The notes beneath the pieces are model-generated. The model ran no database searches, was not told where the DNA came from, and saw only the letters and a program-made list of their open reading frames with translations. Of a DNA stretch of 64,000 nt, positions 17,629 through 43,442 are shown in pieces. Each line of letters begins with the position of its first letter. Within the stretch, counting starts at the first letter, position 1. Origin of the DNA: Gammaproteobacteria bacterium (lineage in GTDB: Bacteria; Pseudomonadota; Gammaproteobacteria; Eutrophobiales; Eutrophobiaceae); assembly GCA_041689615.1 (NCBI GenBank), contig JBDNFW010000039.1:32465-96464 (forward strand), in the 5' to 3' direction. The position numbers were made by a program, and so were the translations under genes.

Positions 17629-17743
17629 AAGTACGCACGCTATTCAAGACTCGTCTTTAAGTCAAGGATTGCGGTAAAGTGGCGACACCGATACCATACA
17701 CCAAATTCTTGAAACTGCATTTGACCGACCGAAAACCAAAATA

Positions 17744-18790: not shown

Positions 18791-18851
18791 TCACCTGTCC
18801 TATAACTTATTTAATAGATACAGAATTATTACATTAGAATATAATAGTGTA

Positions 18852-20408: not shown

Positions 20409-20470
20409 CCTAATATTCTAAATCAAAAAACTAGATGGTTGAATTCATACAAACAAGTTACAGAGAAAGC

Positions 20471-22027
20471 CTAATGACCAGGCTTATCAGTAAACTGATA
20501 AATGTAAATACTGTTTCCAGCATATCCAATAGGTTCATAAAACTTGAGCCAATCAAGATTGGCTTTATTCCAGTAAGCAAGTTTTCGTGTATATATCAAG
20601 TAATGTACACTAATAGCATATATGCCATTTCTTGGGTTAATTAATTCATTTCTTGGTATTAATCGATAAGATAAACCATAAAGGCTTGGATTCATCGAAC
20701 CAAAATACATTAGATTTATTGTCTCTTCAGGATAATTATTTTTTTGCCATTCAACGAGAGCAGGTAAATCCTGACCCCAATCAATATTACTGTCCTCTAA
20801 TAAATTGGGACCATTGCTCGCTCCACCAGCCAGAATATTGAAATAAGAAATATAATCTGGATAGGCAATAAGCGTGGTTATGATATTCCATACTAATAAT
20901 GTGTTAAATAGTATTACTTTTAACTTGTTAGGATTTATATAAAAATAAGCAACAGATACATAGGAAAGTAAAAAAGGATAAATAGGCAATATTCTGCGTA
21001 AACCTAAATTTGTCAGATCAAAACAACAAACAAACATAATAATTCCAACAGGAATTAGAAAATAAACAATTGCATCTTTATCGAGACGGTAACGCAGCGT
21101 TATATATACAGATATTAGTAATAATAATAATGTCGATACAGGAGTCTTAACAAGGAATGCAGCAAAATAGTAATACCAGATTGGCTTGGAAAAAACATTT
21201 CCAAAAAGGTACTGTTGATAATCTATCTTACCAACATCATAAATTTTCGATACTCCATATAGATAAAGCCAAGGCTTAAAGCCATACCCAATACAGATTA
21301 CTAATAATATAAAAAATACTAAAAGAATTAATCCACGAAGTAATATTCTTTTATTTCGACCATTGAGAAGAATTTCATACAAGACAAAAATAAAGAAAAT
21401 AGGAACTAAAAGTAAGGCTGTAAATTTACTTAATAATGCAAGTCCTGTCACTAGTCCACAAATAACCCAACATTTATAATCTTCAGAGCGTATTGCTAAA
21501 TAAAAAGTATATACCGAAATAAACATGAGTACGGTACAACCAAGATCAGTTGTTGCTAATTGACTATGTGCGATAAGATTTGGAGACAACCCTACTAAAA
21601 CGGAAGCAGCAATTGCGGGCAACGGACCTGAGAGTGTTTTTACAAATAAACCTGCCATAACCACCAGTAATGCAAAAAGCAACTGTACTGGCAATCTGGA
21701 TAAAAAGGTTATATCACTCAACTTATCTCCATTGCTTTCAAAAAACATTTGTGCAAAAGCTATTTGTCTCTCAGCGGCATAATTTGGATGCGAATAATCT
21801 GGCGATTTTAAATTCAAAAACTTTAATGGAAATGCTACTAATACTTGTAAAAAAGGCGGGGCTTCTGGATTAAGTTTTATTTCTTTGTTATCAATATAAC
21901 TATATCCAGATACAATATATGTAGGTTCATCATATGTTAGTGACTTTGTTCTTGCTGCTGAAACAACCAATAAGAAACTGAATATAGCAATGCCAATAAT
22001 AATAAAATTTATTTTATTTGACTGCAT
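20471..22027 (-). CDS. GT-C fold membrane glycosyltransferase, ArnT/PMT-like, paralog B (tandem duplicate)
   Basis: 518 aa. YDEPTYIVSGYSY. Collinear with paralog A over the full length. Confidence 0.75.
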   Translation of the reverse strand: MQSNKINFIIIGIAIFSFLLVVSAARTKSLTYDEPTYIVSGYSYIDNKEIKLNPEAPPFLQVLVAFPLKFLNLKSPDYSHPNYAAERQIAFAQMFFESNGDKLSDITFLSRLPVQLLFALLVVMAGLFVKTLSGPLPAIAASVLVGLSPNLIAHSQLATTDLGCTVLMFISVYTFYLAIRSEDYKCWVICGLVTGLALLSKFTALLLVPIFFIFVLYEILLNGRNKRILLRGLILLVFFILLVICIGYGFKPWLYLYGVSKIYDVGKIDYQQYLFGNVFSKPIWYYYFAAFLVKTPVSTLLLLLISVYITLRYRLDKDAIVYFLIPVGIIMFVCCFDLTNLGLRRILPIYPFLLSYVSVAYFYINPNKLKVILFNTLLVWNIITTLIAYPDYISYFNILAGGASNGPNLLEDSNIDWGQDLPALVEWQKNNYPEETINLMYFGSMNPSLYGLSYRLIPRNELINPRNGIYAISVHYLIYTRKLAYWNKANLDWLKFYEPIGYAGNSIYIYQFTDKPGH

Positions 22028-22096
22028 CTAAATTCCAAATAATTAAACTCAGTGATTAATTTTAGTCTGCACAATACTCTACGTTTAATAATTAAT

Positions 22097-23059
22097 TCAC
22101 TTTCGGTATTTTGATGATTTTATATCTTTTACTAAATAGAGCGGCCTGTTTTTCGTTTCGTTAAAAACTCTTCCAAGATATTCGCCAATAATACCTAAAG
22201 CTAATAATTGAATACCGCCAATAAATGCAATTAACACAACTAATGAAGGATATCCTGCGACAGGATCACCAAACATAATTTTCTTTAAAATTATAATTAC
22301 GGCGAAAATTAACCCGGCAAAAGCAGTTAAAACTCCAAGTAATGATGCTAATCTTAGTGGCAATACAGAAAATGATGTTAGTCCTTCAAAGGCTAAATCT
22401 AGTAAACTCCAAAAATGCCATTTTGTTTCCCCAGCGTAACGTTCATCACGCTCGTAAGTAATCTCGGTTTGCGAATATCCTACCCAAGCAAATAAACCTT
22501 TCATATAACGATGCTTTTCTCGCAACTCTAATAAAGCGTCTAATGCATTTCGGCTTAGTAATCTGAAGTCACCTGTATCTTTTGGAATTTTTATATCACT
22601 TAACTGATATAGAAAACGATAATAAACAAATGACGACATTTTTTTGAATGCAGTTTCACCTTTCCTTTTGATTCTCTTAGCATTAACGACATCGTATCCA
22701 TCGTTCCATTTAACAACTAAATCAGGAATCAATTCGGGAGGATCCTGTAAGTCCGTATCAATAACAACTACAGCATCACCTGATGCATAATCTAATCCAG
22801 CAGTTAGTGCGATTTCCTTGCCAAAATTTCTGCTTAAATCAATGATGGTAATACGTGAATCGTTGTTGTGCTGCTTACTCATTATTTCTAATGTGTCATC
22901 CTGACTACCATCGTTCACGTAAATGATTTCCAGATTAACATCTAGATCATTAACTGCATCGACTAATCTTTTGTAAAACTCATCCAACCCAGCTTTTTCA
23001 TTATAAGCAGGCGCAACCACAGACAAGAGTTTTTTATTTTCTGTTTTTTTACTTTCCAT
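22097..23059 (-). CDS. GT2 polyprenyl-phosphate sugar synthase, ArnC/GtrB-like (undecaprenyl-phosphate glycosyltransferase)
   Basis: 320 aa. VVAPAYNE...YVNDGSQDDT, DTDLQDPPELIP. Two C-terminal TM helices. GEYLGRVFNETKNRPLY tail closely parallels E. coli ArnC. Confidence 0.85.
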   Translation of the reverse strand: MESKKTENKKLLSVVAPAYNEKAGLDEFYKRLVDAVNDLDVNLEIIYVNDGSQDDTLEIMSKQHNNDSRITIIDLSRNFGKEIALTAGLDYASGDAVVVIDTDLQDPPELIPDLVVKWNDGYDVVNAKRIKRKGETAFKKMSSFVYYRFLYQLSDIKIPKDTGDFRLLSRNALDALLELREKHRYMKGLFAWVGYSQTEITYERDERYAGETKWHFWSLLDLAFEGLTSFSVLPLRLASLLGVLTAFAGLIFAVIIILKKIMFGDPVAGYPSLVVLIAFIGGIQLLALGIIGEYLGRVFNETKNRPLYLVKDIKSSKYRK

Positions 23060-23061
23060 TT

Positions 23062-23793
23062 TTATATTTTCTTTGCTACAACTATTATTGAAAGACCAAA
23101 AGGAAATGTTATATTACCAATAAACCTAGATTCAAAACTGAATATTTTTTCAAAAAAAACGTTAATAAGGTTAGGCGGCATTTTTAAATCACTATCTTCC
23201 TCTGACATAATTATTTTTTGTTTCAATCTTTCGACAAGTGCTAAAGGAAATAAAAACGTATTAAAGTACGAGATATAATCAACTTTCCAACCATTATTTT
23301 CAATCAACTCTTTTAATCGCTTAACGGTATATCTTCTTTTATGATGATGTTGATCATCACGTTGAGTCCATAAAAATTGATATGCTGGCACTGTTAGAAC
23401 CAGATTTCCACTCTCCTTTACACAATCTCTCAATGCATTCAAGCTTCCAGCGTCGTCGTCAATATGTTCCAAAACATCCAATAACACCAACAAATCATTA
23501 TCTCTTCTTATATCTGCATGAATATTATCTGGCAACTCACCTTTTAATACTTGACCTACGTCTCTTACTTTCGCTTTCTCTAAAGCATTACCATCTCTTT
23601 CCATCGCGACTACATCACCATATTTCGACAAAAATGCAAGGTTATCTCCGTTACCACATCCTGCGTCCATAATATGTGAGCCTTTATCAATATCCAGCTT
23701 TTTAATAACACTTTCAATTATTTTCCGCCTTGCAACAAACCACCAATGCTGAGTTTCAACTTTATACATCTCATCAAATAATTCATTTTCCAT
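23062..23793 (-). CDS. Class I SAM-dependent methyltransferase
   Basis: 243 aa. IMDAGCGNGDN motif I. First gene of a four-gene minus-strand operon with the ArnC-like and ArnT-like genes. Confidence 0.75.
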   Translation of the reverse strand: MENELFDEMYKVETQHWWFVARRKIIESVIKKLDIDKGSHIMDAGCGNGDNLAFLSKYGDVVAMERDGNALEKAKVRDVGQVLKGELPDNIHADIRRDNDLLVLLDVLEHIDDDAGSLNALRDCVKESGNLVLTVPAYQFLWTQRDDQHHHKRRYTVKRLKELIENNGWKVDYISYFNTFLFPLALVERLKQKIIMSEEDSDLKMPPNLINVFFEKIFSFESRFIGNITFPFGLSIIVVAKKI

Positions 23794-23827: not shown

Positions 23828-24586
23828 TTATTTAATTTTTCCCTGAACCTTGGCCAAAATACCGCGCAATATATTGCATTCATTTTCTTCTAATTGTGTA
23901 CGATTAAATAATCGTCGCATTCTATGCATTAATAGACGCGGGTTATCAACATCATGAAATCCTATTTCGGTTAGGCATTGTTCCAGATGTTGGTAAAACA
24001 TTTCCATTTTATCCTGCTTCACCAGTGCTGTATTAGTTTCAACTATCTCCTTATTTTCTTCAAAGCCACCTAATAGATATATTTCATAACAAATAATTTG
24101 TACTGCGGAGGCCAAGTTAAGTGAACTATATTCCGCATTCGTGGGTATTTGTAAAACAAGGTTACAGAGTTCCAGTTCTTCATTACTTAAACCTGAATTT
24201 TCTCGACCAAATACAACCGCTACAGAAGAATATTTATTTTCGGAAATTGTATTCGCGCATTCTCTTGGCGTAACCATAGGCCAGGGTATGCTTCTCGTAC
24301 GAGCACTAGTACCAATCACCAGATCACAATCTGATATAGCTTCTTTTAGACTTGAAAATATTTTGGCATTAGCAAGTATATCATCAGCGCCCGTAGCTCT
24401 GGCTGTCGCTTCTGCTGAAGGAAATATTTTAGGGCTAACAAGATATAGCTTATCCTGTGACATTGTCTTCATTGCGCGGGCTGCTGCACCAATATTACCG
24501 GGATGTGTTGTCCCGACCAGCACGATCCTCGTTTTATCAAAAATATTTTTCATACTTGTTATTGCTTCACTCATGACTACTGACAA
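23828..24586 (-). CDS. trmJ: tRNA (cytidine/uridine-2'-O)-methyltransferase TrmJ (SpoU family)
   Basis: 252 aa SPOUT fold. VLVGTTHPGNIGAAARAM. Divergent from suhB as in E. coli. Confidence 0.85.
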   Translation of the reverse strand: MSVVMSEAITSMKNIFDKTRIVLVGTTHPGNIGAAARAMKTMSQDKLYLVSPKIFPSAEATARATGADDILANAKIFSSLKEAISDCDLVIGTSARTRSIPWPMVTPRECANTISENKYSSVAVVFGRENSGLSNEELELCNLVLQIPTNAEYSSLNLASAVQIICYEIYLLGGFEENKEIVETNTALVKQDKMEMFYQHLEQCLTEIGFHDVDNPRLLMHRMRRLFNRTQLEENECNILRGILAKVQGKIK

Positions 24587-24608
24587 CGTAGAATAACTCG
24601 TTAACTAT

Positions 24609-25671: not shown

Positions 25672-27426
25672 TCAATTGAGTTTATATAGTCTGGCCAAAA
25701 TAACCTCCCGACCACTGACCAAAGTAATTTTTTTCTCAAATACGATAGAAACATTCGATGGTAATTTTTCCTTTGATTGCAATAGATTTTGAAATTCTTT
25801 TTCCATGCCCTCATAGCCAGAATCATTATGAACATAAACATATTTAATCCAGGAATAATCTTCCTGAATCTTAGTCAATGGAAGAGAAAGCAAACGTAAC
25901 GCCAACTTAACTTTTTCTTCATGTTGATGAGAAATAAGAAAATTGTTTGCAATTACCGAGCAGGACGTATGAAAGCGGATATAGTGACCATCATTAGGTA
26001 GCGCTAAAACGACACCAGGGTCTTCATTGCATTGTCGTTTAAAAAGAGGGTATATATCGCGTGTTGCTTGATAATCACGTTCCAAACCGAGCGGATATAA
26101 TTTAAACAATTGTGTAAATACAGGTTGATATACAAGTAGAGACAAAAAAACGGTAACTAATAAAATTAACCTTGAGCTACTGGAATGCTTCTTACTTAAA
26201 ATATCGCTTACTAATAGTAAGGGAAGATATAGAGCAAAGGACCCATAGTAATGCAGCCTAAATTGTTGCCACAGCAGAAAAATACCAAATAGTGAAAAAG
26301 ATAAAAAATAAATATTTTTTAATCGTTTATCATTAATGTATAAGTAATATATAGCAATAAGAGATAACGGAATAAGAAAAAATAAATAGGAATAAAAAGC
26401 TGCTGTACTTCGCCAGCCAAAATCACGCACAAAACTAAATCCCCCTTTAATTTCACCAAATTGTTTTAATATACCTATATCGCCTTGAAAGAATCGGAAA
26501 CCCTGATGAATCTGCGAGAAAACAATAAGACTCATACATACCAAAATACAAATTAACAAAAAGAGACTGCGCTTTGAGTATTTAAAATAATTTACATACA
26601 GAATTATCAAAGATGTGCAAATCGAAATAAATAGATGAAACCAAGAAAGCGTATAAAAAGAAAACTGGCCTGCAAGGAAAGGTTCTGATGGCAAGACAAC
26701 CAGTAAGGTAAACAACAACAAACTTATGGAAAAAAATACGATTGACCTTTGGCTGGCTATTCCTTCACGGTACCAAATAATTAATATCGACACCAATAAA
26801 GGTATTTGTAAAATAAAAAGACTATTATGAAAGGCTGGAGCAATTCCAAGAACCATAGCGAATAAAATTGCCCTTCTCTTATTTTCTAAACTGTCAAACC
26901 AATACAAGCCGCAACACAAACTAGCAAGAACAAAAGTATATTCAATATAATGATGATCTAATACACCAAAACCATGTAAGCCCTGTGTTAAGGGAGAAAA
27001 AGCAAAGCAGAACATTGCGATAGTCAAACGAGAATTTGAGAGATTTAACTTTTTACATACACATATAAACAAGACTGCATTGACGAAAACAAATGCTGGA
27101 GGTGTACGCCATAAGATAAAAAGAGGATCAACATCAAAAAGGGATGATAAAAATAATGTCAAATATCCTATAACAACCGTATAGGCCCAAGGCCAAGTTA
27201 ACCAACTTCCCTCTGGTGCATGTATTTTTGAATCAAATTGATAAAAATTTTGTGGATTTGCTATGAAATCCACAAATCGCCTGGCATGATAAAATGAATC
27301 ATGGCCAACTGGTATATATTCCTCCTCCAAAAGACCGGAGAAAGTCCACAACATTGCAAAATAATACGCAATGCAAGCACCCGTAAACACAATCAATATT
27401 GGAATAATATTTTTACGAATACTCAT
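25672..27426 (-). CDS. Polytopic GT-C-like membrane protein (putative lipid-linked-sugar glycosyltransferase)
   Basis: 584 aa, about 13 TM. First-loop HDSFYHARRF motif analogous to GT-C D-x-x-Y acceptor-loop motifs. No WWDYG oligosaccharyltransferase motif. Confidence 0.5.
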   Translation of the reverse strand: MSIRKNIIPILIVFTGACIAYYFAMLWTFSGLLEEEYIPVGHDSFYHARRFVDFIANPQNFYQFDSKIHAPEGSWLTWPWAYTVVIGYLTLFLSSLFDVDPLFILWRTPPAFVFVNAVLFICVCKKLNLSNSRLTIAMFCFAFSPLTQGLHGFGVLDHHYIEYTFVLASLCCGLYWFDSLENKRRAILFAMVLGIAPAFHNSLFILQIPLLVSILIIWYREGIASQRSIVFFSISLLLFTLLVVLPSEPFLAGQFSFYTLSWFHLFISICTSLIILYVNYFKYSKRSLFLLICILVCMSLIVFSQIHQGFRFFQGDIGILKQFGEIKGGFSFVRDFGWRSTAAFYSYLFFLIPLSLIAIYYLYINDKRLKNIYFLSFSLFGIFLLWQQFRLHYYGSFALYLPLLLVSDILSKKHSSSSRLILLVTVFLSLLVYQPVFTQLFKLYPLGLERDYQATRDIYPLFKRQCNEDPGVVLALPNDGHYIRFHTSCSVIANNFLISHQHEEKVKLALRLLSLPLTKIQEDYSWIKYVYVHNDSGYEGMEKEFQNLLQSKEKLPSNVSIVFEKKITLVSGREVILARLYKLN

Positions 27427-27548
27427 AGAATTAGATTTATCACCCTTTGATTGATATTAACAAAAAGAAAAAACATACTTTCATATCCTGACACAATAAT
27501 ATTTCAATGATGCATACTAAATTTCTATTGGTGCTTCTATTTTAATGT

Positions 27549-29129
27549 TTATTTATCAATTTCTAGTAATACTGAAATAATTTCTCCGCCATATTCAGGC
27601 GGGTAAAAAGTTTGTCGTAATATCCACGAAATATTTTTTACTCTATCAACTGGATACAAAGGCTCATGTTCTCTAAGTGCAGATGCCACAATAAACATAT
27701 AATGGCACTGCGTTAATTCATTTATAAAATCTTCTTGACCGACGTTTTGCAATGGTGGAATAATAACTTTACGCTTACTGTATAACATGACAAATTCTTG
27801 ATGGATTGAATAAATGCATTTATCCTGAGGAACAACTTCTTTTATATCAATGGTTGATTCTATCAACCTCTTTTTAAAAATTAGATGCTTAACCATTTTT
27901 TCAGTATCCATACCAGTAAGCCAGTTCCTATCATTAGTAAGAGACTGTATATTTTCCCCCGGGTTAGTTAACAATCGATTTGTCATAAACATTAAACATG
28001 GAAAAATTGTAATTACAATCAGAAATGGAATGGACAGATTAAAGAAAATACTTATATTTTTATTATTCTGCTTAAATAAAGTTGAAGTAGTAACTTGTAT
28101 ATAAAACAATACAAATGGAATTATGACATAGATAAAACGAACATTTTGATCTGAAAAATTCCAGATAAAAATCAATCCTAGATAAATTACAACATAGAGC
28201 GCATCTAATGATAAAATAATAATGCGCCGGTATAAAGCAAAACACGTTGTTAATATTACAAGACCTGCTAAAACAGCTGTTCCAATGTTAATTACCGTAT
28301 TAAATTGTAACTGTAAACCCAACCAGAACGTTTTTAATTGAAACTGTATTATTGTACTGATTCCAGCCCAAACTCCTCCATACGCATCAATAAAACTTTT
28401 ATATCGTTCCAGAAATGCATTATTAAAATAGGACTGTTCATAATCTATACCATTACTTACTAAAGACCATATCAACCAGGGTATTAATATGATTATTGCA
28501 GTAAAGACAATTTTTGTTTTATCCCGACGATAAACAGCAATAAGTAAAGCAATAACGAGTGATATCCCAACGCTTCTGGTTATTAATGCAAGTCCACATG
28601 TAAATGCGGAAAGATATAGCCAATTATCCGTGCTATTTTTAGTCTTGGAAAAGCACCACAATGTCAACAATACAAATAGTAAGTATAAATTTTCACTCCA
28701 TAACTCAGTGGAAAATAATAGAGTAGATGGAAGAAGTAAAAATAATATCGCATTTATCAGAGCATTAGCTTTAGCTAGACCCTCTTTAACCTGCCAATCA
28801 ATATAAAATAAACATACAGGCAACAGAATTATGGAGGTGGCAACACTTGCCAGAATTATATTGTCACTCCCTGCGCCAAAAATACTTAAGTAAAATGGGT
28901 ACATTGGAGGAAAGCTTCTGTATGCCATCGCTTGTTCCAAGACAGGCAAATTCTCAGCGTTCCAATTTGAAAAATAGTCTGCTTGTAGTAAGTATATAAA
29001 GCTGTCAGTCCAAAAGCCGGGGTTATCATTAAATGAAATAAAAAAATGAATAATCAACGAAAATAATAATAAACCCCATAAACAGTAATACCAATTAAAG
29101 GACAAGTAACCTTTAGTTCGCTTTATCAT
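27549..29129 (-). CDS. Polytopic GT-C-like membrane protein with C-terminal soluble domain (paralog of 30526-32082)
   Basis: 526 aa. WTDSFIYLLQADYF...PMYPFYLSIFG aligns with HDS...SANYMLMALYL...PLFPFVLALTG of the 518-aa protein at 30526. Confidence 0.5.
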   Translation of the reverse strand: MIKRTKGYLSFNWYYCLWGLLLFSLIIHFFISFNDNPGFWTDSFIYLLQADYFSNWNAENLPVLEQAMAYRSFPPMYPFYLSIFGAGSDNIILASVATSIILLPVCLFYIDWQVKEGLAKANALINAILFLLLPSTLLFSTELWSENLYLLFVLLTLWCFSKTKNSTDNWLYLSAFTCGLALITRSVGISLVIALLIAVYRRDKTKIVFTAIIILIPWLIWSLVSNGIDYEQSYFNNAFLERYKSFIDAYGGVWAGISTIIQFQLKTFWLGLQLQFNTVINIGTAVLAGLVILTTCFALYRRIIILSLDALYVVIYLGLIFIWNFSDQNVRFIYVIIPFVLFYIQVTTSTLFKQNNKNISIFFNLSIPFLIVITIFPCLMFMTNRLLTNPGENIQSLTNDRNWLTGMDTEKMVKHLIFKKRLIESTIDIKEVVPQDKCIYSIHQEFVMLYSKRKVIIPPLQNVGQEDFINELTQCHYMFIVASALREHEPLYPVDRVKNISWILRQTFYPPEYGGEIISVLLEIDK

Positions 29130-29350
29130 AATTTTATATTAATTTATTTATGTATATAAACATGGGATTTAATTATAATAACATCTAAAAATTAGCCTTA
29201 TGGTACTGTTTGTTTTTCATTTTAATAGTATTAGTGTGACATATTTCTAAAAATACACTTTTTCTAAGACTACACTCTTAAATATCTTGTTTAATGAGAT
29301 CATCATAATTATTATTGATCACACATCCTATAACCCATAATCTACAGATA

Positions 29351-30286
29351 ATGAATAAACGAATATTAGTTACAGGCGGAGCCGGCTTTCTAGGTTCTCA
29401 CCTATGTAAAAAACTACTTGATGAAGGGAATGAGGTCATATGCCTTGACAATTTTTATACTGGCTCAAAGAAAAATATTATTTCCCTATTGGGGAATCCA
29501 TATTTTGAAGTTGTTCGTCATGACATCACTTTCCCAATATATCTTGAGGTTGATCAAATTTACAATCTAGCTTGTCCCGCTAGTCCAGTTTATTACCAAA
29601 AGTTTCCTATACAAACTACAAAAACTAGCGTATCTGGTGCAATTAATATGCTTGGCTTGGCAAAACGTTTAAATATTCCAATTTTACAAGCCTCTACAAG
29701 TGAAATTTATGGAGATCCAATTGTGCACCCTCAGACGGAGGATTATTGGGGAAATGTAAATTGCACAGGTATTCGCTCTTGCTACGATGAGGGGAAACGT
29801 TGCGCTGAAACACTATTTTTCGATTATCATCGAGAATTAAAATTAGATATTAGAGTGGCAAGAATATTTAACACTTATGGCCCTAACATGGCTGTCAATG
29901 ACGGAAGGGTAATTAGCAACTTTGTTATGCAGGCTTTAAATAATGAAGACATAACAATTTATGGTGACGGAAGTCAAACACGCTCACTTTGCTATGTGGA
30001 TGATCTAATTAACGGTTTAATCAAATTAATGAATAAACCAAATCATCATGAGCCTACTAACTTGGGTAATCCTAATGAACTATCAATCAAGGAAATCGCG
30101 GATAAAATATTGGAATTGACCGGTAGTAAATCGAAACTCGTTTTAAAACCATTGCCTGAAGATGACCCAAAACAACGATGTCCGGATATAACAAGAGCTA
30201 AACAGGATTTAAATTGGGAACCGATTATAGACTTGGATACAGGCTTAACAAATACCATAAATTACTTTAAGAACATTCCTATATAG
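29351..30286 (+). CDS. uxs: UDP-glucuronate decarboxylase (UDP-xylose synthase, SDR family; ArnA-decarboxylase-domain-like)
   Basis: Near-collinear with eukaryotic UXS1: [66 protein letters not shown] at 29351 preferred over the TTG at 29315 used by the ORF track. Confidence 0.85.
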
Positions 30287-30525
30287 AAGAAATATATTTC
30301 TTATTAGGCAGGCATATTTTTTATGATTATTGCCGCATACAGCTTACTGCTAAATTTAATTAAACTTATAACAAGTTGATAACATCATTTATATGGCTCC
30401 AAAAAGATAATAAATATTTCGGCCATATTATTTTTATTCCTTAATAGGAATTACGATAACAATTCTTTCATTTACTTAAAATTTCTAATCAACAATATTT
30501 ATAACTACATAGAATTAATAATATT

Positions 30526-32082
30526 TTGATAAACCATAGTTTTACAAACTCCGGCATTAGAAAGTATACTTTTTGTTTCATATCGATAATTGCTCTCATA
30601 ACATATACAACCATAGCAATTAAATTTGTTTGGCACGATAGTCTCACAACTTTTGCCAGCGATAGCGCAAATTATATGCTAATGGCGCTTTACCTTTCTC
30701 CATGGGAAGAAGCAAGCTTGCCAATACAGTCGCTATGGCCATATCAAGAATACCCGCCACTTTTCCCATTTGTACTGGCACTTACCGGTGTTGTACACAA
30801 CATGACTGCAGCACATGTATTTACATTATTTATACTAATCGCTGCATTGCCACTCATTTACTTGTTCGCAAAACAATGCTTTGCAACAAAATGGCAAGCT
30901 ATGTTTATAACTTCAATATTTATCATTAGTCCATCAACATGGATGAATATACTAGGAATTTTAAGTGAAAATTTATATATATTCTTAAGTTTTTTAATTT
31001 TAATATTGTTTAATAAACAGAAATTTCAAACTATTAGAATGGCTGTAATTTTTGGAATTCTTTTATCAGCCCTTATGTTAACCCGCACCATTGGCGTTGC
31101 AATGTTTGCAGCATACTTTTTCTCTGGACTTTTACTCTACAAAAGAAAAGAGATAAATAAAATTATTTATTTGATGCCCATATTTATTACAATATTTATC
31201 AATGGCATAGCAAAATTACTTCACCAATCCAGCATACCTTCTCAATACATAAGACAATTAAAAGATCTCGAATTTGGAAATCAATTTATTGCCATAATTG
31301 ACGCATGGTTTTCATCTTGGCAATTTTATTGGACTGATAATTTAATGCTTCCTTATGCAATCGTTCTTGTGACAGGCTTACTTGCATGTTTTGGTCTGCT
31401 ATATCGTTTAACCACACTGAAATTTGATGCTATTTACGTTACAGTATATTTACTAATACTTTTATTGTGGCCTCACCCTGGACAAGCATTACGGTTCATA
31501 TATCCAATCCAAGCAATTCTACTGATATATGCTTTTTACTTTTTAGATTATTTATGTAAAACATTTTCAAGCACATCATCTTATAAACCTATTACTATAT
31601 TACTTTTGTTAATGTTCTCCGTTGTTTTACCACCATTATCCTTTGCGTATAATAGATATAATGTTGGTTCTGACAATGAGTATAATCATATAAAAGAATT
31701 TTATAGGTTCCCAGATATAAAAAATGCACAAATAAATGCTGGCATACAAACCGCTATGTTTAATGACATGGTAGACATCAAAAATGACACTAATGAAAAT
31801 GACTTAATATTATATTTTAATTCTTCCTATATCGCTTTATTAGCTAATAGAAAAAGCAAAGATATTAAATTTAATTATATAGATGATAATTTATACACTG
31901 TTGATGATGTTAGTGACGCCGACTATATCTATCTAAGTAGATTACATCCTAGAAAAACCAGAGAAAATATTAATGGTTTGGCAACATTGAAATATTTTGC
32001 TGAAAAAACAGAAATAATATGGACGCACTATTCTGATGAAAATAATGAGCCCGTATCTATTTTTTTAAAAGTTGTAAAATAA
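30526..32082 (+). CDS. Polytopic GT-C-like membrane protein with C-terminal soluble domain
   Basis: 518 aa. Paralogous to the 526-aa protein on the opposite side of uxs. Confidence 0.5.
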   Translation: MINHSFTNSGIRKYTFCFISIIALITYTTIAIKFVWHDSLTTFASDSANYMLMALYLSPWEEASLPIQSLWPYQEYPPLFPFVLALTGVVHNMTAAHVFTLFILIAALPLIYLFAKQCFATKWQAMFITSIFIISPSTWMNILGILSENLYIFLSFLILILFNKQKFQTIRMAVIFGILLSALMLTRTIGVAMFAAYFFSGLLLYKRKEINKIIYLMPIFITIFINGIAKLLHQSSIPSQYIRQLKDLEFGNQFIAIIDAWFSSWQFYWTDNLMLPYAIVLVTGLLACFGLLYRLTTLKFDAIYVTVYLLILLLWPHPGQALRFIYPIQAILLIYAFYFLDYLCKTFSSTSSYKPITILLLLMFSVVLPPLSFAYNRYNVGSDNEYNHIKEFYRFPDIKNAQINAGIQTAMFNDMVDIKNDTNENDLILYFNSSYIALLANRKSKDIKFNYIDDNLYTVDDVSDADYIYLSRLHPRKTRENINGLATLKYFAEKTEIIWTHYSDENNEPVSIFLKVVK

Positions 32083-32098
32083 TACATACTATAAAGCT

Positions 32099-33091
32099 TT
32101 AAGATATGGTTTCTTCAAATAAATTTTTATATTCTTCTATCATTTTTTTTAATGTGAAATTTTTTTCTATTTTCTCTCTATTGTAGGCTCCCATTTCTTT
32201 TCGTAACTGAACTGATTCTGCTAATGTATCTATACATTCTGCAAATAATTCTGCCTTGTTAATAGGACATAAAAAACCGCCTTTTTTATCATCCACAAGT
32301 TCTGGTAATGATGAGCAATCTGTCACAACCACTGGCAAACCGCATGCCATTGCTTCTGCAACTGCGAGTCCAAATCCTTCTCTCACAGTCGGAGACACCA
32401 GAATATCTACTTCATTATACAAAGATGGCATAGCACTATGATCAACACTACCAACACATATTGCTTTCGGATGTTTTATCTGCCTTTTATTTGAACGCAG
32501 CCCTGATGTGTAAAGAAGTTCTATATTTGATTCAGTTCGATCAAGTATTTTGGGGATTAAATCTACACCTTTTTTTCTACTAAGATCTCCACTAAATAGG
32601 ATTTTTATCTTGTTGTCACTTTTTCTTTTTGTCCTTTTAGGAATAAATATATTTTCATCAACACCATTATGAATAACTCTTATTTCTTTTGTATAATTTA
32701 ATTCTGACTTTACTAAACTAGCCAAATACTGACTACCACATGTAATAACTTTTGATTTTTTTAATGCTTGTTCAATGAAAAACTTTAAATCAGTTCGATA
32801 ATGAATTCTCTGTGCAATAGATGAATACGGTTCTATATATCGGTCAAGAACGAAACTGTGAAATGTTGAGACCAAAGGCTTACTGGGTAATTTCGAAAAA
32901 ATAGCATAATCAATTGGAGCATGGATTAAATCTGCTGTCTTATCACCAAAATAGCGTATTGCAGGTGGGAAATATGACCAATTAGGATGGTAAGGTATTA
33001 CCTTGTAATTACTAATATTTGATTCCAACGATTTATGCGCAATATATGCACCACTTCCATAAGCAACGGGGCTACTAATTTTCATAATCAC
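32099..33091 (-). CDS. GT4 (GT-B fold) glycosyltransferase
   Basis: 330 aa. EX7E motif region REGFGLAVAEAMACGLPVV. Confidence 0.8.
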   Translation of the reverse strand: MIMKISSPVAYGSGAYIAHKSLESNISNYKVIPYHPNWSYFPPAIRYFGDKTADLIHAPIDYAIFSKLPSKPLVSTFHSFVLDRYIEPYSSIAQRIHYRTDLKFFIEQALKKSKVITCGSQYLASLVKSELNYTKEIRVIHNGVDENIFIPKRTKRKSDNKIKILFSGDLSRKKGVDLIPKILDRTESNIELLYTSGLRSNKRQIKHPKAICVGSVDHSAMPSLYNEVDILVSPTVREGFGLAVAEAMACGLPVVVTDCSSLPELVDDKKGGFLCPINKAELFAECIDTLAESVQLRKEMGAYNREKIEKNFTLKKMIEEYKNLFEETIS

Positions 33092-33122: not shown

Positions 33123-33911
33123 CTAATCATCTTTTTTAAAAAAAGTATTATAGGGCAAGGTTCTTAAAAGAAATCTTGTTTTAAATGGGTAATATAAAAT
33201 CCAGAATATAATTTGCATTAAACGCCATACAATATTTTTTTCATTTTTTGCCTGCAAACTGATTTCTTCATGCAACCTTGTCGATAAATATTTATCAGTA
33301 CTACAAGGTCCGTCTCCTCCCATGAAAGCTACGGGTATTTTTTCAAAACTGACACTGCTTCGTATATTTATAGCACGATAGAGGAAATCATAATCCTCGG
33401 TGATCGTATATTTAAGATCGTAATCTCCAATTTCATCAAATAATTTCCGATTAACGAAGATGCCCTGATGCGGAAATATATTCCTGAATCTAATCCACCA
33501 TAAATGCTGAATAGGGTTAATTTGTTCGACGTTATCGGGAGATAACTCCTTTATAATCGGAAAACTATAGATATCAAGTTTTTTAGCAGAGATAATTTCA
33601 TGTACTTTTTTCAGTACATTCTCATTTAATAAATAATCGTCTGCCTGGATCGCGATAATATATTCACCCGTTGATAAGTTTACCGCTTTATTAAAGGCAT
33701 CCGGCACGCCCTGATCAACTTCGGATATCCACTTCAAATTATAGGTATTTTTATAAGAAGCAAGAATCTCCAGCGTATTGTCAGAAGAAGCACCATCAAT
33801 CACAATATGCTCATAATCCTGATAAATTTGATTTTTGATGGATTCAATCGTTCTCTTTATGGATCCCCCTTTATTCAAAGATGCTGTAATAACAGTAAAA
33901 TAAGGAGCCAT
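33123..33911 (-). CDS. GT2 (GT-A fold) glycosyltransferase, soluble type
   Basis: 262 aa. FTVITASLNKGGSIKRTIESIKNQIY...IVIDGASSDNT. DxD in AIQADDY. No C-terminal TM. Confidence 0.78.
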   Translation of the reverse strand: MAPYFTVITASLNKGGSIKRTIESIKNQIYQDYEHIVIDGASSDNTLEILASYKNTYNLKWISEVDQGVPDAFNKAVNLSTGEYIIAIQADDYLLNENVLKKVHEIISAKKLDIYSFPIIKELSPDNVEQINPIQHLWWIRFRNIFPHQGIFVNRKLFDEIGDYDLKYTITEDYDFLYRAINIRSSVSFEKIPVAFMGGDGPCSTDKYLSTRLHEEISLQAKNEKNIVWRLMQIIFWILYYPFKTRFLLRTLPYNTFFKKDD

Positions 33912-33949: not shown

Positions 33950-34849
33950 TTATAACGCAGGATTTATCCATGTTTGAATTCCATCTCCAAACTCAATCTT
34001 TCCAAATGGCGTATCATTTATTTTATTACGCTTATAATCTCGTAAACAACTCCAATTATTATTTAACATCAATTCACGAATATTTTCTTCTATTTTTACA
34101 GAATGTGTTCCAATATGTAATCGCTTAACTTTTTTATTTATTATATCGGCAGATGATTTTAACACATCAAACTCTTTACCCTGTATATCCATATGGATCA
34201 TATCAACATAATCAATGTCTGATAAAATTGAATTTAACGTATAAGTTTTAACATTTAAAACATCAAGATTATATTGTCCTGTCTTGAATTTTTTCTGACG
34301 CCAGCACCTTATCTTCCTATAAAGCATATTTACTAAATTATCATTTACAATTGATTGCCCATAACATTTACTAGGATCTCCTATTTCAAATTGTACTATT
34401 TTTTCAGTATCATCAATTGCACCTTGATATATCTCATGATTTTCCACATTTATATTATTCATCTCTAGATTATCAATAACCCAGCCAAAGTGAGTAGGCT
34501 CTGCCTCGACTATTACAAGTTTAGTAAAAAGCGGCCTGAGTATTGAAGCTATATAATAAGCAATAACTGACCATCTTGCATATCCCGCACCTAATTCAAC
34601 AAAAGTATAATTATCCGTAGCGCACTCGATACTTTCACAAATATCTAGCCATTCAAATACAGCGTCATTATTCGTTGAAATTTCTTTTTTGCAGTAAAAA
34701 TCAAAACATTTTTTATCAGTGAAATTTATTTCTCTATTTAATTCCACATCATACTTCTTTAGTTGAACAGAGCCACAGCGAGTATGAATAATATCTGAAT
34801 CAAGATGTCCTTCTTTAAAGTTAAATCTATTAAATATCTCTGGATACAT
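33950..34849 (-). CDS. FkbM-family methyltransferase domain protein
   Basis: 299 aa. FVELGAGYARW...LVIVEAEPTHFGWVIDNL pattern typical of the FkbM MTase domain. Confidence 0.5.
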   Translation of the reverse strand: MYPEIFNRFNFKEGHLDSDIIHTRCGSVQLKKYDVELNREINFTDKKCFDFYCKKEISTNNDAVFEWLDICESIECATDNYTFVELGAGYARWSVIAYYIASILRPLFTKLVIVEAEPTHFGWVIDNLEMNNINVENHEIYQGAIDDTEKIVQFEIGDPSKCYGQSIVNDNLVNMLYRKIRCWRQKKFKTGQYNLDVLNVKTYTLNSILSDIDYVDMIHMDIQGKEFDVLKSSADIINKKVKRLHIGTHSVKIEENIRELMLNNNWSCLRDYKRNKINDTPFGKIEFGDGIQTWINPAL

Positions 34850-34955
34850 TTGTGGCTCACCTAATTATTTTTAATCAATAATATCTATATGCTAAATGAA
34901 CCGTCGGTATATTTGCATATGCTTATAGATTAACTCTGTCACTAAAATTATTTTA

Positions 34956-36035
34956 TTACAAAATTATTTCTTGCAACTCTATTTTATTCAAACCCCAATC
35001 GTCATCATTATGAATAATCGGTGCTTTTGATTTATACATTTTCGATACCCAGTCATCAAGTTCTTTAATAGACATAACCGGAACTTTATTCTTTTCAAGA
35101 CGTTTGTATAAACTTCTATCTTTTTCTGATTTTGGCGACCAACCACTATCATGTTCAATATGATAAATAGGAGCTTCAATCATTATTTCTTTAATACCTG
35201 CAAAAAAAGCAATATAACAAACCAAAGAATCTAGATGCAGGGAAAACAATTCCAACTCAGGAGCACCTTTTATATCAAACCAATCATCTCTCGACATTAA
35301 ATGAAAATCACCACAAGCATTAGTATGCAGTTTCATCCATTGTCTATGTTTTTTTGTTAACTTATAAAAATACATAACAATGCGACTATCGCGATATTTT
35401 TCTAGCAACTCAATCCCGGGAATATATTTGCGTCTCTTTCCGACAAAAGGAATCGTAGGAAATGGTGGGATAAAGGGTAATGCATTTGAGTTCTCACAAT
35501 CAATTATTCCCCTTTTTTCATTAATTCGAATCGTATGATCCTTACAAACATTAAGTAGATCGTTAAACTTGTTATATTTGAAGATATCTCTTGAGACATC
35601 ATGCCTGTCCACACGATAGTAATTACCTTTTTCCAATTTTGTCGAAGACAAGTATTCCATTAATTCATTTGAAAAAATGATGTCGACATTTGTTGACAAT
35701 ATAAATTCGCCTTTAGCACGAACAATTCCAACGTTTTTTGCAATCATCTGAAATAGAGGAAGACCGTCAGAATATTTATATTGATTATGCAATTCTGAAG
35801 GCACATGGATTATTCTGACATTACAAAATGAATTTTTTTTATCCCAATTTAACACGTCTACTAAACGCGGTTCATTTTCAGGAGGATTCCATTCAACCAG
35901 AATCAATTCCGTTGATAATTTATATTTTTCACACTGAATAAAAAGGCCATCAATGAATATTTGCATCCGCTTAATTAAATCACCGCCATGATTATCATTA
36001 CGAGATGTTGCTATTATAGATATTCTTGGATTCAT
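34956..36035 (-). CDS. Hypothetical protein, possible GT-A-like glycosyltransferase
   Basis: 359 aa. N-terminal ISIIATSRNDNHGG resembles the GT2 start. Possible DxD in TNVDIIF. No TM. Confidence 0.3.
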   Translation of the reverse strand: MNPRISIIATSRNDNHGGDLIKRMQIFIDGLFIQCEKYKLSTELILVEWNPPENEPRLVDVLNWDKKNSFCNVRIIHVPSELHNQYKYSDGLPLFQMIAKNVGIVRAKGEFILSTNVDIIFSNELMEYLSSTKLEKGNYYRVDRHDVSRDIFKYNKFNDLLNVCKDHTIRINEKRGIIDCENSNALPFIPPFPTIPFVGKRRKYIPGIELLEKYRDSRIVMYFYKLTKKHRQWMKLHTNACGDFHLMSRDDWFDIKGAPELELFSLHLDSLVCYIAFFAGIKEIMIEAPIYHIEHDSGWSPKSEKDRSLYKRLEKNKVPVMSIKELDDWVSKMYKSKAPIIHNDDDWGLNKIELQEIIL

Positions 36036-36137
36036 AAATATTATATTGCTAATATATAAGATAATTTTTTATACTGCATCGAGACTTGTAAACTCCCATG
36101 TCTTCTAAGCGACATTAAAATGCAATCTGTATCGAAC

Positions 36138-36917
36138 TCATGATAGTTTACAAGTTATTAAAGTATGCCAACCTAATTCCCTGCATAAAGCACCAAACAT
36201 TTTTTCAGACATAACTTCAAACCAAGGTTCAAGCTGATACTCATAATTTATATATTTCCCTACTATAAATGGAAATATATGATCCTGATGCATGTCAATA
36301 ATCTCAAAATCCGCTAATAATTCACGCAACTCATCCTGAGAATACGTATATGCAACAGGACATCCAGATTGTGCTTCTGGTTGGTCAAAGCCACTTTCTA
36401 TCATAATATTCTTCCATGAGTTTTTCGCATACATCATTAACCGAAATTCAGATTCATTACCCATATACTGCTTAACACTCTCTATCACTTCTCCTGGGTT
36501 TGGCGTGTGATGTATAACGCCAAAAGAATATACTAAATCATAATTTTCTATTGGAACGATTGATAATAAATCTTCTGCATTTCCTTGATAAAATTTTCCA
36601 TCTAAGTTAAAAACATCAAATCTTTTTTTAGTAAGCTCTAGACTTTTATCTGAGAGCTCAATAGCTGAATATTTTGCCCCTGCCCTTGCAAAATTTATTG
36701 CATCAGTACCCAACCCACATCCTATCTCAAGCACTTTCTTGCCTTTCCACTTTTCAAAATCGGCAAAGTGAGGAATGTGAGGCTCAACAAAATATTTTCT
36801 TTCTTCAACCTCATCGAAATATTTTTTTGTTCCTATCTCTGATAGTGAATGTCTTATATTACAAGGTCGCTTATTCCAGTAATCACGGACATTATTAATA
36901 TTATCGTTACCATTCAT
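36138..36917 (-). CDS. Class I SAM-dependent methyltransferase
   Basis: 259 aa. KKVLEIGCGLGTDAINFARAGA. Confidence 0.78.
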   Translation of the reverse strand: MNGNDNINNVRDYWNKRPCNIRHSLSEIGTKKYFDEVEERKYFVEPHIPHFADFEKWKGKKVLEIGCGLGTDAINFARAGAKYSAIELSDKSLELTKKRFDVFNLDGKFYQGNAEDLLSIVPIENYDLVYSFGVIHHTPNPGEVIESVKQYMGNESEFRLMMYAKNSWKNIMIESGFDQPEAQSGCPVAYTYSQDELRELLADFEIIDMHQDHIFPFIVGKYINYEYQLEPWFEVMSEKMFGALCRELGWHTLITCKLS

Positions 36918-36973
36918 ATCTTATTTTCACCTATCAATTTTCAAAATAAAAAATATTTTAATACTAACTTACA

Positions 36974-37852
36974 TTACTTTTTTGATGCTATTAACCAATC
37001 TGAACACATCCATTTCGGCAACCATGCTGCTATTTTCCCATTCAAACTTAACAAGGCATCACTTTCTCTCATAAGTATGTTTATAATATTTCCTGCTAAA
37101 AATGTACGGCTTTTAAACTCTATAATTTTATAACCACTACTTCTTAATAACTGTTTTATATTGCGAGATGTAAACTTATTACAGTGAATTGTTTCTTCAT
37201 CTAATGAAGAACATGATGCATTACAATATTCTGGGGAACGTTCAATTTTATGACGCTTTAACAAACTCTTTGAACCATATCGTTCTACTACTGCTTGCTG
37301 ACATAGATCAATGTAACTAACAAATTTCGGATAACGCTCATAAAAAATACTTTCAAATTCGAAATAACCATATCCATTAGGTACCGTTATTAACAAAAGT
37401 CCACCATCCACTAATACATCTTTCATTTCCTTTAATAATTCATCAGGTTTTTCCAAATGTTCCAAGACCTCCGAACAAATTACAATATGGAATTGTTCAG
37501 TATCAGTCAAAGTAGCTAACGATTGACAATAGAAGGATACATTAGAATAATTTTTCGTCATGCTAATTGCTTTATTAATGGATGCTTCGTTTACATCAAC
37601 ACCCTTAACATTGTACCCAATATCTGCAAGCGGAATAGTCACAGCAACACCAGTGCCACAACCAACATCTAGAATTTTAATGTCTTCAACACTAAAACCT
37701 AGACTACTTCTAATAGCTTCGATATGTTTTAAAAAAAATCGGAGGCGTTTAATAATGCCAAAGGCATCTTCTCTAAAACTATAACCGGAAAAATCAATCG
37801 TAGATGGAAATACATCAACACACTCTTGATTCAAGATTGGTGATGTATTCAT
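36974..37852 (-). CDS. Class I SAM-dependent methyltransferase
   Basis: 292 aa. KILDVGCGTGVAV. Confidence 0.78.
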   Translation of the reverse strand: MNTSPILNQECVDVFPSTIDFSGYSFREDAFGIIKRLRFFLKHIEAIRSSLGFSVEDIKILDVGCGTGVAVTIPLADIGYNVKGVDVNEASINKAISMTKNYSNVSFYCQSLATLTDTEQFHIVICSEVLEHLEKPDELLKEMKDVLVDGGLLLITVPNGYGYFEFESIFYERYPKFVSYIDLCQQAVVERYGSKSLLKRHKIERSPEYCNASCSSLDEETIHCNKFTSRNIKQLLRSSGYKIIEFKSRTFLAGNIINILMRESDALLSLNGKIAAWLPKWMCSDWLIASKK

Positions 37853-38577: not shown

Positions 38578-38642
38578 TTAATATTCTCCACATTCAATTT
38601 TAAGTAAATACTGAAATCATCATCCATATATATATATCAGAA

Positions 38643-41028: not shown

Positions 41029-41039
41029 GCTAGGTATTT

Positions 41040-43439: not shown

Positions 43440-43442
43440 ATA

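Follow-up and report, generated by a model that had tools for sequence, protein, structure and literature searches.

Gene content of the locus

Within the 64,000-nucleotide stretch of gammaproteobacterial DNA analysed here (the window; GC 30-43%), positions 27549-32082 carry a gene for a UDP-xylose synthase (UDP-glucuronate decarboxylase, UXS) flanked by two genes for membrane glycosyltransferases of the GT-C fold. The closest relatives of the window are metagenome-assembled genomes (MAGs) labelled Gammaproteobacteria or Thiotrichaceae. UXS (29351-30286, + strand, 311 residues) matches human UXS1. The gene on its left, GT-C L (27549-29129, - strand, 526 residues), is assigned through a PMT_2 match and paralogy, and the one on its right, GT-C R (30526-32082, + strand, 518 residues, TTG start), through an AlphaFold (AF2) model and Foldseek. 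All three lie where a first-pass annotation, made from the letters of the sequence, had placed them, and their layout is as it described: UXS is divergent from GT-C L across a 221-nt spacer (29130-29350), presumed to hold promoters in both directions, and co-directional with GT-C R beyond a 240-nt gap (30287-30525). A scan of 27300-32300 returned promoter-like sites no more often than in shuffled sequence and revealed nothing that convincingly resembles a terminator between UXS and GT-C R, and an Rfam scan of the window found nothing. The trio sits in a surface-glycan region of ~31 kb that is inserted around the housekeeping pair trmJ/suhB and has housekeeping genes on both outer flanks. Comparison with related loci makes us lean, by a modest degree, towards the view that a recurrent module for extracytoplasmic xylosylation is present here in a stripped-down form.

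The UXS gene

Read mechanically, the UXS open reading frame (ORF) covers 29315-30286 (+), starts with a TTG at 29315 and comprises 323 residues. The ATG at 29351 is the likely start, because the resulting 311 residues equal the length of the called orthologue in L001 (L-numbers designate the fetched relative loci, 70 in all and 65 with GT-C family members, which were scored by tblastn with the proteins of the window). Human UDP-glucuronate decarboxylase (2b69/4gll) matches UXS with an E-value of 1.5e-114 (386 bits, residues 13-319); the matches to 2b69, 4gll and 4m55 span E 1.5e-114 to 1.8e-113, and the next family follows at E 6e-35. The alignment with human UXS1 is full-length and keeps the GxxGxxG NAD motif, the T-S-E and Y-x3-K motifs and the arginine of DDPxxR (DDPKQR). 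All catalytic residues are retained, namely T128, E130, Y157, K161 and R288 in the numbering of the 323-residue ORF, which we take to be the counterparts of T118, E120, Y147, K151 and R277 in human UXS1. On the basis of this alignment, the middle gene is assigned as a UDP-xylose synthase of the UXS1 type.

The first-pass annotation had seen in UXS a clean homologue of both eukaryotic UXS1 and the decarboxylase half of ArnA. The former part stands, whereas the latter holds at the superfamily level only: the ArnA decarboxylase domains match at E ~1e-16 to 1e-17 (~64 bits), which is the general level of short-chain dehydrogenases/reductases (SDRs). UXS consists of the SDR domain alone, scores 84.7 bits against the ArnA model NF005998 (cut-off 777), and is not a bifunctional formyltransferase/decarboxylase of the ArnA type. 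It reaches 93.5 bits against the bifunctional 4-keto-pentose/xylose synthase model NF008872, the cut-off of which is 294. A 4-keto-pentose, previously entertained as the product, is unlikely to be released, because the enzyme belongs to the UXS1 type, keeps all catalytic residues and remains far under the cut-off of that model.

The flanking GT-C paralogues

GT-C L and GT-C R are diverged paralogues of one uncharacterised GT-C-fold family, as had been proposed at first sight. They share 26% identity over 435 residues (BLASTP, E 4e-24) and each contains ~11 hydrophobic segments. When searched against 1.84 billion representatives, a profile of the two retrieves 798 clusters (E<=1e-30), which gives a family of ~800 clusters at 50% identity, mostly from uncultured Gammaproteobacteria. 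Only 12 homologues were found for GT-C L, against more than 115 for GT-C R; those of GT-C L with flanking DNA, seven or more (in the window and L001-L005), adjoin UXS, with the exception of L006.

GT-C L exceeds the Pfam PMT_2 threshold (34.1 bits vs 26.1, E 3.8e-8), and GT-C R has no Pfam match. The AF2 model of GT-C R, built from an alignment of 70 homologues (pLDDT 90.7, pTM 0.92), exhibits 11 transmembrane (TM) helices and a C-terminal α/β domain (residues ~385-518), and its first periplasmic loop is helical. When this model was compared with the Protein Data Bank (PDB) using Foldseek, 22 of the 22 matches at E<=0.001 were GT-C enzymes, as were the 17 beyond them down to rank 39, the best having an E-value of 2.4e-5 with TM-scores of ~0.5-0.58; STT3, AglB, PglB, DPY19, ALG9, AftA and ArnT are among the matched folds. 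The AF2 model of GT-C L is of low confidence (pLDDT 66, from a shallow alignment) and has the helix order of GT-C R; its fold is assigned by sequence alone, through the PMT_2 match and the similarity to its paralogue. Residues D42, Y46, E146 and T184-R185 are invariant among the 12 homologues of GT-C L, and D46, Y50, E148, T186-R187 and R323 among the 70 of GT-C R. The aspartate (D42 in L, D46 in R) stands 10-11 residues past the first TM helix and is a likely candidate for the catalytic base. With the N-terminus inside, an odd number of TM helices and the C-terminal domain outside, the model would have its active site facing the periplasm. The predicted donor is a polyprenyl-phosphate-linked sugar, because of the fold and of the DPM1-like family 2 glycosyltransferase (GT2) and GtrA neighbours in relatives.

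The first-pass annotation had drawn an analogy with the transfer of 4-amino-4-deoxy-L-arabinose (Ara4N), in which the trio would perform an ArnC/ArnT-like modification of lipid A or core with xylose or a 4-keto-pentose. The general logic of such a trimmed Ara4N pathway fits (a decarboxylase, a polyprenyl-phosphate GT2 and a GT-C), ArnT is among the fold matches and ArnC among the GT2 sequence matches. However, ArnT is a distant match that appears at ranks 25-27 (E 5e-3 to 7.5e-3, TM-score ~0.5), below the oligosaccharyltransferases (OSTs), DPY19 and ALG9. The GT-C family profile returned neither ArnT nor any other GT-C chain when run against the PDB by sequence, NCBIfam reports no ArnT match, and neither GT-C L nor GT-C R belongs to ArnT/GT83 at the sequence level. 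The decarboxylase points the same way, with 386 bits for human UXS1 vs ~64 for ArnA and its score far below the NF008872 cut-off; moreover, the gene thought to be ArnC-like is a GtrB orthologue (see below) and the module has no genes for lipid A or core as neighbours. The ArnA formyltransferase, ArnB and ArnD had been noted as missing, and indeed the scanned ORFs of the window yielded no domain of the formyltransferase, aminotransferase or deformylase type. Direct Pfam and NCBIfam scans covered all ORFs of at least 150 residues but seven, six of which (12455-18790) were assigned by synteny with L002 only, the seventh being a spurious antisense ORF. Taken together, a lipid A or core modification of this kind appears very improbable, and the Ara4N analogy finds no specific support.

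Decay of the trio was considered and ruled out: the dN/dS values relative to L001 are 0.05 for UXS, 0.15 for GT-C R and 0.18 for GT-C L, which denotes purifying selection. L001 possesses the same reduced layout, likewise without an adjacent GT2, and the low dN/dS values indicate that the reduced set of UXS and two GT-Cs is still maintained.

UXS/GT-C modules in related loci

A true UXS, defined here as an orthologue with at least 55% identity at most 1.6 kb away from a GT-C gene, is present in 18 of the 65 loci, with 62-93% identity to that of the window; many of these loci form a related suhB-linked group and are not independent counts. Among the loci with at least 2.5 kb of DNA on both sides, about half have UXS near a GT-C. 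The association spans three GT-C subfamilies (the L, R and L007 types) of only 22-30% mutual identity, and at least four distinct architectures. The suhB-linked architecture is that of L001-L005, L009, L010, L017 and L024-L030. It includes the marine relative L030, in which suhB, UXS, GT2 and GT-C follow in a row, as well as five loci (the L010, L025-L029 group) in which UXS and GT-C are 11-43 nt apart. In L009, suhB, UXS and GT2 precede six tandem GT-C paralogues.

Other architectures are found in compact operons. L007, from an Acidiferrobacterales MAG, encodes UXS (304-1248), GtrA (1245-1652; PF04138, E 1.9e-19), a GT2 (1659-2363) and a GT-C (2341-3906) in overlapping or abutting ORFs, and the neighbours of this operon are genes for an extracytoplasmic function (ECF) sigma factor and a transposase, not for lipopolysaccharide (LPS). 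L054 has UXS (351-1289), GT2 (1282-2013), a methyltransferase (2010-2741) and GT-C (2745-4295) with overlapping stops and starts, and a gene for an LPG_synthase_TM protein converges on the operon. In L022/L023, an isolated GT-C/UXS/GT2 trio lies amid hydrogenase, CLC chloride-channel and glucokinase genes. The most complete order among relatives is UXS, (GtrA flippase), DPM1-like GT2, (S-adenosylmethionine (SAM) methyltransferase) and GT-C.

The DPM1-like GT2 is located between or beside UXS and GT-C in L007, L054, L009, L030 and L022, and a polyprenyl-phosphate GT2 is adjacent to GT-C in L004, L007, L009, L022, L024, L030 and L054. This GT2, 234 residues long and devoid of TM segments in a hydropathy scan, is closest to the polyprenyl-phosphate glycosyltransferases AglJ, PpgS and ArnC and to the Pyrococcus DPMS (5mlz), and the UXS-linked copies fall into three subclades of one tight clade in a neighbour-joining (NJ) tree. 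GtrA was found in L007, L042, L057, L059 and L060. The position that corresponds to the gap between UXS and GT-C R in the window is occupied by the 234-residue GT2 in L030/L024 and L009, and by a methyltransferase in L002 and L017.

Two features of these modules are recorded in their own right. A SAM methyltransferase of 239-243 residues recurs in the UXS/GT2/GT-C module (L054 2010-2741; L002 7959-8651; L003 2567-3256; L004 7745-8431; L017 9245-9964), often directly beside UXS, as does the L054-type enzyme in L002, L003, L004 and L017. In L009, which belongs to a complete MAG chromosome, the six GT-Cs (within 9902-20057) are 38-40% identical to GT-C R and represent an expansion behind a single donor pathway.

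A proposed pathway for periplasmic xylosylation

The simplest reading of the UXS-GtrA-GT2-GT-C operon is a three-component xylose system. UXS would turn UDP-glucuronate, supplied by a ugd gene outside the window, into UDP-xylose, and we infer the steps that follow. An inverting GT2 would load xylose onto undecaprenyl phosphate (Und-P) at the cytoplasmic face of the membrane. In the relatives that bear the methyltransferase, the presence of this gene hints at a possible O-methylation of the sugar at this same face. The lipid-linked xylose would then be flipped across the membrane, and the two GT-C paralogues would transfer it, on the periplasmic side, to two different positions or acceptors. 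The core of the first-pass annotation, in which a pentose made by UXS is charged onto polyprenyl phosphate and moved by the GT-Cs outside the cytoplasm, draws support from the 18 UXS/GT-C loci and from the operons that also hold GT2, GtrA and methyltransferase genes.

More broadly, we would put forward, tentatively, that UXS, the 234-residue GT2, often the methyltransferase and GtrA, and the GT-C form an undescribed pathway making undecaprenyl-phosphate-xylopyranose (possibly O-methylated), an unreported bacterial donor, for the periplasmic xylosylation of surface glycans or proteins, in which case the GT-Cs would constitute a new glycosyltransferase family. In the literature searched, which includes PMC4878081 and omits most subscription journals, we found neither a UXS-fed lipid-linked xylose pathway in bacteria nor a UXS inside a GtrA/GT2/GT-C operon.

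Observations that weigh against the pathway and candidate donor genes

Several observations weigh against this pathway. Undecaprenyl-phosphate xylopyranose itself has no description in the same literature. Among the relatives, L016, L021, L033/L068, L042 and L047 combine the 234-residue GT2 (59-69% identical) with family GT-Cs and have no UXS within ~5-8 kb. GtrA is present as well in L042 and L059, in GT2/GT-C loci without a nearby UXS, and the GT2s from UXS-less loci interleave with the UXS-linked ones in the NJ tree. Either UXS is located elsewhere in these genomes, or this GT2 and GT-C need no xylose, their specificity not being fixed. Furthermore, in L008, L011 and L063 the partners of the family GT-Cs are a different SDR, with 35-37% identity to UXS, and a more distant GT2, which indicates that the GT-C family handles more than one sugar. 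In L008 (6320-14201), this SDR comprises 353 residues, is 37% identical to UXS and resembles dTDP-glucose dehydratase and ArnA-type models to the same extent. The L008/L063 module also contains a Gfo/Idh/MocA oxidoreductase, two family GT-Cs, the distant GT2, a methyltransferase and an orthologue of the GT2 encoded at 46513-47385 of the window, and probably handles a different modified sugar.

Further points of this kind come from the window, which contains neither a dedicated 234-residue GT2 nor an adjacent methyltransferase. No GT2 remnant was detected by tblastn or blastn in the 240-nt gap between UXS and GT-C R, and a search for a decayed GT2 or methyltransferase in this gap and in the 620-nt gap of L001 gave nothing above noise. 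Nor does tblastn report a GtrA in the window, where no LPG_synthase_TM-type, SMR-type or other small flippase was found either; the only small multi-TM ORF is the spurious one, a 151-residue ORF with hydrophobic stretches (24141-24596, +) that lies wholly antisense in trmJ and is almost certainly not a gene. Since the window trio has no dedicated GT2 beside UXS, the donor synthase must act in trans.

The two ArnC/DPM1-like GT2s that the first-pass annotation had placed elsewhere in the window do exist, at 22097-23059 and 46513-47385, ~4.5 and 14.4 kb from the nearest UXS-linked GT-C. Its suggestion that they serve the UXS-linked GT-Cs fares less well, as both have other likely partners. The gene at 22097-23059 (-) encodes a GtrB-type polyprenyl-phosphate glycosyltransferase of 320 residues with two C-terminal TM helices, which matches Synechocystis GtrB sll0501 (5ekp) at E 4.8e-103 vs 5e-53 for ArnC and scores 290 bits with the PgfS model. 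The idea of a pentose-specific relative of ArnC is ruled out by this comparison. The gene encodes a GtrB orthologue, probably an Und-P-glucose synthase given its location beside a different pair of GT-C genes, a further argument against a role in the pathway. It is paired with a SAM methyltransferase gene (23062-23793, -; 243 residues; Pfam Methyltransf_23/11/12), the product of which is distantly related to the 243-residue methyltransferase of the L054 operon (26% identity, E 6e-19). The adjacency of the pair to trmJ is retained in L001-L005 and L030, including where the two tandem GT-Cs that follow it in the window are absent. These GT-Cs, of the PMT_2 type and of another lineage (18852-20408 and 20471-22027, -; ~70% mutual identity), lie downstream of the GtrB orthologue and the methyltransferase, and the stretch 18852-23793 (-) constitutes a second, separate Gtr-like module.

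The gene at 46513-47385 (-) encodes a DPM1/AglJ-like polyprenyl-phosphate GT2 of 290 residues with one C-terminal TM segment. NCBIfam reports AglJ (E 5.9e-35) as well as Dol-P-hexose transferase, PpgS and ArnC, all under cut-off. It is the better in-window candidate for making the donor, because in the NJ tree it is the sister of the UXS-linked 234-residue GT2 clade and because its orthologues (54-62% identity) are neighbours of family GT-Cs in L008, L063, L041, L047 and L069. Yet it is directly downstream of a pilin/TfpW-like pair, the TfpW-like GT-C of which is its natural partner, and it has no clear dedication to the UXS-linked GT-Cs. It is possible, with some doubt, that it makes the donor of the window GT-Cs; a gene outside the window is a nearly as probable source, and the GtrB-like gene a quite unlikely one.

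The origin of UDP-glucuronate raises a similar difficulty. The sole NDP-sugar dehydrogenase gene of the window, AlgD-like (41040-42404, -), has the AlgD GDP-mannose dehydrogenase as its best PDB match (E 1.6e-60), and UDP-glucose dehydrogenases score nearly as high. The enzyme is probably GDP-linked, because the SDR encoded by the adjoining gene (within 41040-43439) is orthologous to GDP-mannose 3,5-epimerase (E 1.4e-104 to Arabidopsis GME), and this neighbour makes it an unlikely ugd for feeding UXS. No second NDP-sugar dehydrogenase and no ugd occur within the window. The UDP-glucuronate source is therefore placed outside it, as the first-pass annotation had anticipated in case the dehydrogenase proved GDP-specific. 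The full pathway cannot be closed from the window's sequence alone.

A different explanation is that UXS feeds cytoplasmic Leloir glycosyltransferases, which would build a xylose-containing O-polysaccharide on undecaprenyl pyrophosphate for export by Wzm/Wzt, the GT-Cs using another lipid-linked sugar such as Und-P-glucose and their adjacency to UXS reflecting a shared locus. Two Leloir-type genes, a GT4 (32099-33091, -; Pfam Glycos_transf_1) and a GT2 (33123-33911, -; Glycos_transf_2), abut the trio and converge on GT-C R. Homologues are kept at the same position in L001, L010, L017 and L025-L029, and the two enzymes are possible cytoplasmic users of UDP-xylose or builders of the acceptor glycan. 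The missing GT2 and flippase beside UXS, the GT2/GT-C loci with no UXS nearby and the likeness of the only nearby GtrB-type enzyme to Und-P-glucose synthase agree with this explanation. To our knowledge, UDP-xylose is moreover consumed in the cytoplasm in the characterised bacterial systems. However, the adjacency of UXS and GT-C persists outside polysaccharide loci, in the compact operons of L007, L054 and L022, which otherwise hold only GtrA, the DPM1-like GT2 or the methyltransferase, a composition that coincidence within a shared locus fails to explain. In addition, UXS is very close to GT-C in the five loci mentioned above, while the Leloir genes are on the opposite strand. We regard a purely cytoplasmic use of UDP-xylose as unlikely, and retain the lipid-linked xylose pathway as the preferred reading.

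The surrounding glycan region and the acceptor

Wzt (39751-41028, -; Pfam ABC_tran and Wzt_C) and Wzm (43443-44279, -; Pfam ABC2_membrane) bracket the NDP-sugar dehydrogenase and the GDP-mannose 3,5-epimerase (39751-44279). The pairing of these two enzymes is unusual in bacteria, and their location between wzt and wzm suggests that the O-polysaccharide has a GDP-L-sugar or GDP-uronic acid as a precursor. A gene for an ArsR/SmtB-type regulator (44272-44826, -) just precedes wzm, with an 8-nt overlap at the start of the latter. On the other side of wzt, the stretch 33950-39818 (-) includes four methyltransferase genes, one of the FkbM type and three of the class I SAM type, together with two genes for conserved proteins, one with no family match at all (34956-36035) and one with weak, sub-threshold repeat matches only (38643-39818). 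A run of methyltransferases beside a Wzt with a C-terminal carbohydrate-binding domain is consistent with methylation or terminal capping of O-polysaccharide residues.

By analogy, the acceptor in the window would most likely be the O-polysaccharide exported by Wzm/Wzt, because both proteins are encoded in the same locus and because post-export glycosylation has a precedent in Citrobacter youngae (PMC11127046). Indeed, the periplasmic addition of side chains by GT-Cs to ABC-exported O antigens is established in that system (PMC11127046).

Alternatively, the same lipid-linked xylose could be transferred to a protein, type IV pilin or another periplasmic or surface protein, by GT-Cs acting like TfpW or like PMT-type protein O-glycosyltransferases. 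In L060, a family GT-C gene is located 139 nt downstream of a pilin gene and is followed by GtrA, and family GT-Cs lie near pilin or pilBCD genes in L008, L015 and L069. The best Foldseek matches of GT-C R, OSTs and DPY19, act on protein, GT-C L matches PMT_2, and the L007 and L022 modules are outside LPS loci. The pilin of the window, however, has its own GT-C and GT2, ~15-22 kb from the two UXS-linked GT-Cs, which lie within the O-polysaccharide locus. Beyond Wzm are found a GT4, the DPM1-like GT2, a 622-residue membrane protein, the pilin gene (49393-49938, -) and pilRS, pilR/pilS being upstream of the pilin. The 622-residue protein (47417-49285, -), encoded directly after the pilin gene, is a TfpW/TMTC-like GT-C with ~10 TM segments; its family has more than 2,800 matches, named protein O-mannosyltransferase/TPR (tetratricopeptide repeat) protein by JGI, and the pair of pilin and 622-residue homologue recurs in L008 and L015. 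The proximity to pilin in L033/L068 follows the conserved sucCD-pilSR-pilA synteny and not a direct adjacency, which leaves a single clear case of a family GT-C adjacent to pilin. A protein acceptor therefore seems improbable for these GT-Cs, and the exported O-polysaccharide remains the favoured acceptor. As a separate observation, the gene order pilin, 622-residue GT-C and DPM1-like GT2 (46513-49938, -) resembles a pilA-tfpW system for pilin glycosylation with a lipid-linked sugar.

One more membrane protein is encoded between suhB and GT-C L (25672-27426, -). It comprises 584 residues with ~11 TM segments and is STT3-like, its match to TIGR04154 (archaeal STT3 oligosaccharyltransferase; E 1.4e-12) being far under cut-off; it returned no Pfam match and no PDB relative by sequence. 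The gene is kept beside GT-C L in L001 (78%) and is present in L004 (34%). In total, the window encodes six GT-C-like membrane proteins of four lineages.

Comparison with known glycosylation systems

The Gtr systems (GtrA/GtrB/GtrC) that glucosylate O antigens, encoded by phages and chromosomes of Shigella and Salmonella, would follow the same logic, from an NDP-sugar to a lipid-linked sugar made by a GT2, flipped by GtrA and transferred by a GT-C. The likeness extends to the presence of GtrA (PF04138) in relatives and of a genuine GtrB orthologue in the window. In contrast with Gtr, the operon would have to include UXS as a synthase for its sugar, here a pentopyranose. In place of GtrB, the module contains the DPM1-like GT2 of 234 residues without TM segments; it is often supplemented by a SAM methyltransferase; and the UXS-linked GT-Cs form a distinct family with weak or absent Pfam matches.

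As in the ArnA/B/C/D/T pathway, an SDR would first decarboxylate UDP-glucuronate oxidatively, undecaprenyl phosphate would carry a pentopyranose and a GT-C would transfer it. The pathway proposed here differs by the lack of formyltransferase, aminotransferase and deformylase, by a UXS1-type decarboxylase that should reduce the 4-keto intermediate to xylose, and by a GT-C that is no orthologue of ArnT and has no tie to lipid A. Bacterial UDP-xylose synthases are known from Sinorhizobium meliloti and Bacteroides fragilis, where UDP-xylose is used by cytoplasmic enzymes.

TfpW of Pseudomonas aeruginosa Pa5196, a GT-C with a TPR domain encoded downstream of pilA, uses a lipid-linked D-arabinofuranose donor. 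Common features are the transfer of a polyprenyl-phosphate pentose by a GT-C, the family member located directly downstream of a pilin gene in L060 and, in the window, the separate TfpW-like gene after the pilin. The UXS-linked GT-Cs of the window, however, possess no TPR domain, have no detectable similarity to its TfpW-like protein and are not encoded next to a pilin gene.

A parallel in terms of acceptor is found in C. youngae O1/O2, in which a polyprenyl phosphoribose synthase (PPPRS), a MATE flippase and a GT136 GT-C add pentose side chains to an ABC-exported O-polysaccharide after export (Kelly et al. 2024, PMC11127046). This pathway makes lipid-linked Und-P-xylofuranose and Und-P-ribofuranose, the donor being derived from phosphoribosyl pyrophosphate (PRPP) via the polyprenyl phosphoribose synthase and an epimerase (PMC11127046), and neither the paper nor its supplement mentions UXS. 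GT136 resembles GT-C R by its 11 TM helices, a helical domain after the first of them and an extra C-terminal periplasmic domain, as well as by a catalytic aspartate with a tyrosine four residues on (D31/Y35 there, D46/Y50 in GT-C R). The two systems differ in their donor, a furanose from PRPP in C. youngae and UDP-xylopyranose from UXS here, where no polyprenyl phosphoribose synthase, MATE or SMR domain was found among the scanned ORFs. They also differ in size: GT136 ORF12 has 652 residues with a carbohydrate-binding module at 503-652, whereas the window GT-Cs have 518-526 residues and a domain of ~130 residues, a comparison made by architecture. No counterpart of the window GT-C turned up in a phage collection. 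The system described here would belong with the three-component periplasmic glycosylation systems, with xylose as its new feature.

Implications

The polyprenyl-phosphate sugars known to be used outside the cytoplasm are glucose, GlcNAc, mannose, Ara4N, GalN, GalA, arabinofuranose and ribofuranose. Xylofuranose and ribofuranose are also known from C. youngae as polyprenyl-phosphate sugars (PMC11127046). If the pathway proposed here is correct, the UXS-fed xylopyranose donor would be a new entry among these lipid-linked sugars, and would bring with it a new family of GT-Cs. The window alone is of lower value in this respect, because its copy has no donor-making genes, and L007 and L054 are better entry points; their compact operons are ready test systems of four genes each, with a single nucleotide sugar as input and a single lipid as the predicted product. 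The pathway, if confirmed, would bear on the prediction of O-antigen and glycoprotein structures from genomes and on glycoengineering. It would also provide a function for ~800 sequence clusters now labelled hypothetical, and would mean that bacterial UDP-xylose is not confined to cytoplasmic Leloir enzymes.

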